NCBI RefSeq assembly: GCF_057098645.1 | Contig: NZ_CM169472.1 | Direction: 5' to 3' (one strand) | DNA: 64,000 nt | Part shown: positions 12,588 to 14,670 of the stretch, in pieces | How the letters are laid out: each line of letters begins with the position of its first letter | Position numbering within the stretch: the first letter of the stretch is position 1 | Position numbers and translations under genes: made by a program | The notes under the pieces: model-generated | Seen by the model: the letters and a program-made list of their open reading frames with translations, nothing else | What the model was told of the DNA's origin: nothing | The model's database searches: none

Positions 12588-14670
12588 ATGTCTAACGTGC
12601 AGGAGTGGCAACAGCTTGCCAACAAGGAATTGAGCCGTCGGGAGAAAACTGTCGACTCGCTGGTTCAGCAAACCGCGGAAGGGATCGCCATCAAGCCGCT
12701 GTATACCGAAGCCGATCTCGATAATCTGGAGGTGACAGGTACCCTTCCTGGTTTGCCGCCCTACGTTCGTGGCCCGCGTGCCACTATGTATACCGCCCAA
12801 CCGTGGACCATCCGTCAGTATGCTGGTTTTTCAACAGCAAAAGAGTCCAACGCTTTTTATCGCCGTAACCTGGCCGCCGGGCAAAAAGGTCTTTCCGTTG
12901 CGTTTGACCTTGCCACCCACCGAGGCTACGACTCCGATAACCCGCGCGTGGCGGGCGACGTCGGCAAAGCGGGCGTCGCTATCGACACCGTGGAAGATAT
13001 GAAAGTCCTGTTCGACCAGATCCCGCTGGATAAAATGTCGGTTTCGATGACCATGAATGGCGCAGTGCTACCAGTACTGGCGTTTTATATCGTCGCCGCG
13101 GAAGAGCAAGGTGTTACACCTGATAAACTGACCGGCACCATTCAGAACGATATCCTCAAAGAGTACCTCTGCCGCAACACCTATATTTACCCGCCAAAAC
13201 CGTCAATGCGCATTATCGCCGACATCATCGCCTGGTGTTCCGGCAACATGCCGCGATTTAATACCATCAGTATCAGCGGTTACCACATGGGTGAAGCGGG
13301 TGCCAACTGCGTGCAGCAGGTAGCATTTACGCTCGCTGATGGGATTGAGTACATCAAAGCAGCAATCTCTGCCGGACTGAAAATTGATGACTTCGCTCCT
13401 CGCCTGTCGTTCTTCTTCGGCATCGGCATGGATCTGTTTATGAACGTCGCCATGTTGCGTGCGGCACGTTATTTATGGAGCGAAGCGGTCAGTGGATTTG
13501 GCGCACAGGACCCGAAATCACTGGCGCTGCGTACCCACTGCCAGACCTCAGGCTGGAGCCTGACTGAACAGGATCCGTATAACAACGTTATCCGCACCAC
13601 CATTGAAGCACTGGCTGCGACGCTGGGCGGTACTCAGTCACTGCATACCAACGCCTTTGACGAAGCGCTTGGTTTGCCTACCGATTTCTCAGCACGCATT
13701 GCCCGCAACACCCAGATCATCATCCAGGAAGAATCAGAACTCTGCCGCACCGTCGATCCACTGGCCGGATCCTATTACATTGAGTCGCTGACCGATCAAA
13801 TCGTCAAACAAGCCAGAGCTATTATCCAACAGATCGACGAAGCCGGTGGCATGGCAAAAGCGATCGAAGCAGGTCTGCCAAAACGAATGATCGAAGAGGC
13901 CTCAGCGCGCGAACAGTCGCTTATCGACCAGGGCAAACGTGTCATCGTTGGTGTCAACAAGTACAAACTGGATCACGAAGACGAAACCGATGTACTTGAG
14001 ATCGACAACGTGATGGTGCGTAACGAGCAAATTGCTTCGCTGGAACGCATTCGCGCCACCCGTGATAATGCCGCCGTAACCGCCGCGTTGAACGCCCTGA
14101 CTCACGCCGCACAGCATAACGAAAACCTGCTGGCTGCCGCTGTTAATGCCGCTCGCGTTCGCGCCACCCTGGGTGAAATTTCCGATGCGCTGGAAGCCGC
14201 TTTCGACCGTTATCTGGTGCCAAGCCAGTGTGTTACCGGCGTGATTGCGCAAAGCTATCATCAATCTGAGAAATCGGCCTCCGAGTTCGATGCCATTGTT
14301 GCGCAAACGGAGCAGTTCCTTGCCGACAATGGTCGTCGCCAGCGCCTATTCCGATCTCGGTTTCGACGTAGATTTAAGCCCGATGTTCTCTACACCTGAA
14401 GAGATCGCCCGCCTGGCAGTAGAAAATGACGTTCACGTAGTGGGCGCATCCTCACTGGCTGCCGGTCATAAAACGCTGATCCCGGAACTGGTCGAAGCGC
14501 TGAAAAAATGGGGACGCGAAGATATCTGCGTAGTCGCCGGTGGCGTCATTCCACCGCAGGATTACGCCTTCCTGCAAGAGCGCGGCGTGGCGGCGATTTA
14601 TGGTCCTGGTACACCTATGCTCGACAGTGTGCGCGACGTACTGAATCTGATAAGCCAGCATCATGATTAA
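12588..14670 (+). pseudogene. scpA: methylmalonyl-CoA mutase ScpA/Sbm disrupted by a 62-bp frameshifting deletion near 14340
   Basis: ORF 12567..14399 (mutase body, ends in 19 out-of-frame residues) and ORF 14245..14670 (B12-domain C-terminus, 109 in-frame aa) are in different frames; 584 + 21 missing + 109 = 714 aa reference length. Confidence 0.85.

Follow-up and report, generated by a model that had tools for sequence, protein, structure and literature searches.

The scpA (sbm) gene for methylmalonyl-CoA mutase in the stretch of DNA analysed here carries an internal 62-bp frameshifting deletion that removes the start of the B12-binding domain together with the cobalt-ligating histidine. 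This is very probably a genuine and clonally inherited loss-of-function allele, characteristic of Escherichia coli O145:H28, which would have originated by slippage and become fixed under relaxed selection. The stretch, hereafter the window, comprises 64,000 nucleotides of contig NZ_CM169472.1 (assembly GCF_057098645.1), and the pseudogene occupies positions 12588..14670 of its plus strand. The same deletion was found in a group of complete genomes that share the O145 antigen genes, and it is accompanied by premature stops in two neighbouring genes, one of them encoding the chaperone of the mutase.

Results

The deletion and its junction

The scpA frame starts at the ATG at 12588, not at 12589, and reads normally through 584 native residues, comprising the MM_CoA_mutase barrel and the linker and ending in FLADNGRR. 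It then continues with 19 out-of-frame residues up to the stop at 14397-14399, the predicted product of this truncated frame (12588..14399, plus strand) being 603 aa long. The C-terminus of the protein, 109 residues ending in QHHD (14341-14667, with the stop at 14668-14670), is found in a different frame. It represents what is left of the B12-binding domain, namely S606-D714 with the stop (14341..14670, plus strand). This stranded remnant is out of frame with respect to the N-terminal part and is devoid of both strand beta-1 and the DxHxxG loop. An open reading frame of 141 aa with a TTG start (14245-14670) spans this remnant. The layout of the reading frames is therefore the one described by the original prediction, which had been made from the letters of the window, and the PGAP annotation of the RM9872 and Z1323HEC0422 genomes lists a 'scpA, frameshifted' of the same extent. 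At position 14607, in the dead C-terminal part of the gene, the window shows a T that is a private SNP at a synonymous position, RM9872, Z1323HEC0422, UTME-3, O157:H7 and NCTC10444 having an A.

Nucleotide alignment with the allele of O157:H7 86-24, and comparison with those of NCTC10444 and UTME-3, demonstrated that exactly 62 bp are gone from scpA in the window, in agreement with the size that had been predicted. It had been foreseen that a reference with the same sequence at this place would speak against a deletion; this was looked at, and the intact E. coli scpA alleles hold the 62 bp. A segment of 501 bp in the window corresponds to 563 bp in 38 of the 39 non-carrier genomes among the matches listed. 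Since 62 leaves a remainder of 2 when divided by three, the frame is shifted and a stop is reached 19 codons on. The missing peptide comprises residues 585-605 of the 714 present in the nearest intact relative, UTME-3, whose sequence at this point is identical to the peptide predicted to be lost, and the arithmetic on which that prediction was based (584 + 21 + 109 = 714) holds. The window allele shows 98-99% nucleotide identity to the intact alleles, with which its N-terminal 584 residues are collinear.

In the alignment the gap can be placed with equal score after any of the window positions 14335-14340, which reveals a 5-bp microhomology, TCGCC. This short sequence is present twice in the intact alleles, the two copies being 62 bp apart, and once in the window (14336..14340, plus strand), so that the microhomology proposed for the junction is borne out. 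The repeat is thus located at both ends of the deletion in the ancestral form and one copy has been kept, as expected for a deletion by slippage. The ancestral copies sit in an imperfect 10-mer, TCGCC[C/A]GCGC, and microhomology of at least 5 bp is expected in only 0.6% of the possible 62-bp deletions in scpA, or of those of 10-300 bp. The deleted segment is neither of low complexity nor a long repeat. The DNA fold calculated for the intact segment has an energy of -19.5 kcal/mol (z = -0.82 versus shuffles); because this fold does not stand out from the shuffled controls, a hairpin-assisted slippage is not claimed, such a structure being a facilitating rather than a necessary feature, and it is the microhomology that points to slippage.

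Consequences of the deletion for the protein

In the intact orthologue of UTME-3 the MM_CoA_mutase domain (PF01642) extends over residues 28-539 (E = 2.9e-235); the B12-binding domain (PF02310) follows at residues 586-701, corresponding to model positions 2-119. Residues 1-584 of the window are unchanged with respect to UTME-3, with no substitution upstream of the junction, and for the remnant in the window the match to PF02310 is limited to model positions 20-119 of 121. The block beginning with RRPR(I/L)L(I/V) in the solved human, Mycobacterium and Propionibacterium mutases corresponds residue by residue to the deleted segment, the deleted histidine aligning with the GQDGHDRG motif of human MMUT and the P. 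shermanii mutase. By chain index this histidine, residue 38 of the query, corresponds to residue 609 of 1req_A, a chain without Met1, which we take to be His610 of P. shermanii MutB in the 1REQ numbering and the lower axial ligand of cobalt. The structure-sequence alignment and the domain coverage confirm the claim that the deletion eliminates the cobalamin-binding DxHxxG motif including the cobalt-ligand histidine.

Several of the features required of a functional ScpA/Sbm are missing in the window. The B12-binding domain has no DxHxxG motif, the barrel and the B12-binding domain neither share a frame nor form two complete subunits, and the MeaB/ArgK partner is not intact, being interrupted by W277* (15491-15493). 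Neither a programmed frameshift nor any other recoding can restore the gene, since the DNA itself no longer contains the codons of the 21 essential residues. Judging from the sequence, what is left of scpA is a substrate barrel without the cofactor site, with predicted loss of the succinyl-CoA to methylmalonyl-CoA mutase activity.

Distribution among complete genomes

We considered as carriers those genomes that are collinear with the window and contain a perfect match to the 61-bp junction sequence (window 14308-14368), in a set of 5,426 complete E. coli genomes. Carriers amounted to 25 of these 5,426, a count that leaves out the published O145:H28 genomes 2015C-3125, 10942 and 112648, which are not in the collection. 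These three, together with 122715, are the complete O145:H28 genomes named in PMC9144400. The carriers come from the USA, Belgium, Japan, South Korea and Canada, and were sequenced by several laboratories, with isolates from cattle, produce, water and humans among them. In all the non-carrier genomes of the collection with a match, the junction is absent as a single collinear match. Among the complete genomes tested, the 62-bp junction is therefore confined to the O145:H28 clone, and the truncated form was also found outside them: the exact 603-aa product is present on 363 public contigs and in GenBank entries such as AHG16268.1, which is assigned to O145:H28 str. RM13516.

The O145 wzx/wzy genes were found in all 25 carriers, and the labelled ones are typed as O145:H28, phylogroup E, ST32 or ST6130 (PMC9144400). 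Twelve other genomes with O145 wzx/wzy do not belong to the carriers, for instance O145:H25 CFSAN004176 and isolates from duck and dog; in two O145 genomes, HN68 and NC22, the intact 563-bp form was seen directly. This rules out that the deletion tracks serogroup O145 as such. UTME-3, NCTC10444 and O157:H7 all have an intact gene, as expected for a clonal pseudogene, and it is likely that the deletion is fixed across the whole O145:H28 clone. The junction is also a clean marker of PCR size, for which amplification across 14250-14450 would yield 201 bp from carriers and 263 bp from intact alleles.

None of the complete genomes is identical to the window. The nearest, Z1323HEC0422, is a few SNPs apart and does not have an insertion of 1,310 bp that is present at 36509-37818 of the window. 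This insertion is located 10 bp into a prohibitin-family gene, is flanked by a 3-bp target duplication, and encodes an IS3-family transposase (NCBIfam NF033516, E = 6e-94); from its length and terminal sequence we assume it to be IS629-like. Its junction occurs in no complete genome, and the insertion is hence private to the source strain. Two O145 genomes, NZ_CP101310.1 (99-3311) and NZ_CP031919.1 (FWSEC0002), show approximately 36.2 kb in the place of window positions 1-25000, the difference being an insertion of approximately 11 kb, not shared by the window, that includes primase-helicase and DEAD/DEAH helicase genes.

Two further repeat structures were observed in the window. At 8136-8435 and 8527-8827 there are direct repeats of approximately 300 bp, 90% identical and each with an ibsC-type type I toxin gene, which represent the known tandem ibs/sib arrangement; only one copy is annotated in this stretch of NCTC10444. 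The loiP-speB intergenic region (41976-42273) contains overlapping direct repeats of approximately 188 bp, 91% identical and offset by approximately 113 bp, that resemble a short tandem repeat or one of REP type.

Neighbouring genes and the order of events

The locus is that of E. coli K-12, with the same gene order, sbm-argK(meaB)-scpB(ygfG)-scpC(ygfH), and the same flanks, argP upstream and srsR/ygfI downstream. Unlike the K-12 gene, scpA in the window is frameshifted and has lost residues 585-605 with the B12-binding histidine, and meaB contains a premature stop. The latter gene (argK/ygfD; 14663..15658, plus strand), which encodes the mutase-associated G-protein chaperone, is a pseudogene by virtue of a TGG to TAG change in codon 277 (SNP at 15492), annotated by PGAP as 'internal stop', that costs the last 55 of its 331 residues. 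The following genes, scpB for methylmalonyl-CoA decarboxylase (15669..16454, plus strand) and scpC for propionyl-CoA:succinate CoA transferase (16478..17956, plus strand), are intact. Next to them lies srsR (ygfI; 17953..18849, minus strand), encoding a LysR-type stationary-phase regulator, which is also a pseudogene with an 'internal stop' in the PGAP annotation, Q69* (codon 18643-18645).

The W277* SNP of meaB is present in 26 complete genomes, namely the 25 carriers of the deletion and UTME-3 (NZ_CP168984.1), a veal isolate with 99.9% identity to the window over 14 kb; no more than 3 substituted positions separate the two across the operon. UTME-3 has both meaB W277* and srsR Q69* together with a full-length scpA that holds the 62 bp. 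Its wzx/wzy genes differ from those of O145 and match only 3 complete genomes, none of which is a carrier, which rules out that UTME-3 is itself an O145 strain; it may be a sister lineage predating or lacking the O145 antigen switch. From the comparison of these genomes, the stops in meaB and srsR were probably present in the common ancestor with UTME-3 and the scpA deletion would have occurred later, on the O145:H28 branch, an order that is drawn from one intermediate genome and that recombination at the locus could mimic. In an exact-sequence look-up, the truncated MeaB was found on 454 public contigs versus 363 for the truncated ScpA. These counts fit an order in which meaB was hit first, and are weak evidence for it because the look-up was made by exact sequence.

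The srsR gene is interrupted in O157:H7 86-24 as well, in a genome where scpA and meaB are intact, and scpA, meaB and srsR are all intact in NCTC10444. A common origin of the srsR stops in O157:H7 and in the window can be discarded, as they are located at different codons (W193* in 86-24 versus Q69* in the window) and are thus independent, so that the loss of srsR in two EHEC lineages looks like a case of convergence. The possibility that SrsR controls the sbm operon was considered too and discarded: the targets published for it include no sbm genes (PMC9181523), and it is not known to have this role.

Discussion

The observations can be brought together in the following history. In the ancestor two copies of TCGCC would have stood 62 bp apart at the start of the B12-binding domain; the copies would have mispaired, most likely during replication, with the loss of one copy and the intervening 57 bp. 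Residues 585-605 would thereby have disappeared, among them strand beta-1 of the B12-binding domain and the DGHDRG loop with its cobalt-ligating histidine, and with the shift of frame translation would end 19 codons later. The deletion would have hit an operon that was probably already disabled by the ancestral meaB W277*, and the most likely history is that drift or hitch-hiking fixed it while selection was relaxed, because meaB had probably already been stopped and because the operon is described as silent in K-12 and is commonly lost. The event resembles the deletions by slipped-strand mispairing that form a classic class in E. coli, in which a small deletion is flanked by short direct repeats and one copy is kept. 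In comparison with them, the repeat in scpA of O145:H28 is only 5 bp long, or 10 bp if one mismatch is allowed, and is not accompanied by a significant hairpin; slippage is proposed here as the putative mechanism.

The sbm operon has been described as silent, a 'sleeping beauty', in E. coli K-12 and laboratory strains (PMC5512728). A separate deletion of approximately 4.3 kb, seen when window positions 11400-18900 were compared across the collection, has removed most of it from approximately 1,150 of 5,425 complete E. coli genomes (~21%), including EcN and BEN2908. This deletion leaves only fused fragments of scpA and scpC, annotated as 'methylmalonyl-CoA mutase family protein' and 'acetyl-CoA hydrolase', whereas O145:H28 shows a 62-bp microdeletion and a point nonsense mutation; the two represent independent natural inactivations of the same operon, and the larger one shows that the operon is dispensable in E. 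coli. The species does not synthesise cobalamin de novo.

That the 62 bp had merely been dropped by the assembler is a reading for which a single window on its own would leave room. The identical junction is nevertheless present in 25 complete genomes sequenced independently by several laboratories and on several platforms, and the exact truncated product on 363 public contigs; considering in addition that the deleted segment has neither the low complexity nor the long repeats that could mislead an assembly, we regard the probability of a sequencing or assembly artefact as practically nil. That the gene has kept its function, by programmed frameshifting or as separate barrel and B12-binding subunits in the manner of 2-hydroxyisobutyryl-CoA mutase with its small subunit, is scarcely more credible. 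Split B12-dependent mutases do exist among the solved structures (4r3u_C, 2yxb_A), and the TTG-start frame at 14245-14670 spans the remnant. Regaining the frame, however, could not return the 21 deleted residues with strand beta-1 and the DxHxxG histidine, and the match of the remnant to PF02310 begins only at model position 20; reading the sequence by eye revealed no slippery site near the junction, and the partner chaperone is truncated too.

A different question is whether the loss was advantageous, that is, whether inactivation of the succinate-to-propionate pathway was positively selected in O145:H28, for example in a bovine gut rich in B12 and succinate. The existence of two separate inactivating mutations in the same pathway of one lineage agrees with this idea, as do the independent deletion of the operon in about a fifth of E. 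coli genomes and the report that loss-of-function mutations are common in the evolution of O145:H28 (PMC9144400). Once the pathway was dead, on the contrary, a further hit would bring no added benefit and is what neutral decay predicts; scpB and scpC are still intact, and the silence of the operon in laboratory strains (PMC5512728) leads one to expect little phenotype from its loss. We consequently consider an adaptive loss to be unlikely. Its more specific form, a stepwise destruction of the Sbm pathway (meaB W277* and then the scpA deletion) under positive selection in the ruminant or human gut niche of O145:H28, seems to us equally improbable; if it were true, the junction could mark O145:H28 with respect to the non-O145 sister lineage and to other O145 backbones. 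Fixation of the deletion under relaxed selection is the explanation that we favour.

At the level of annotation the lesion is already known, RefSeq giving the gene as 'scpA, frameshifted', and it is an ordinary clonal pseudogene. The main text of comparative-genomics papers on O145:H28, and the literature as far as it is searchable, yielded no mention of scpA, sbm or meaB in this connection. The finding is the less surprising because the lesion is clonal and annotated, meaB and srsR are broken as well, and the operon is commonly lost. Enterohaemorrhagic E. coli O145:H28 is predicted to be unable to run the cryptic B12-dependent pathway from succinate to propionate, a loss that would be of interest solely in metabolic modelling or strain engineering. 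Of modest value are the junction, as a clone-specific marker, and the scpA locus, as a small and tidy example of the stepwise decay of a silent operon, of which an intermediate, UTME-3, survives.
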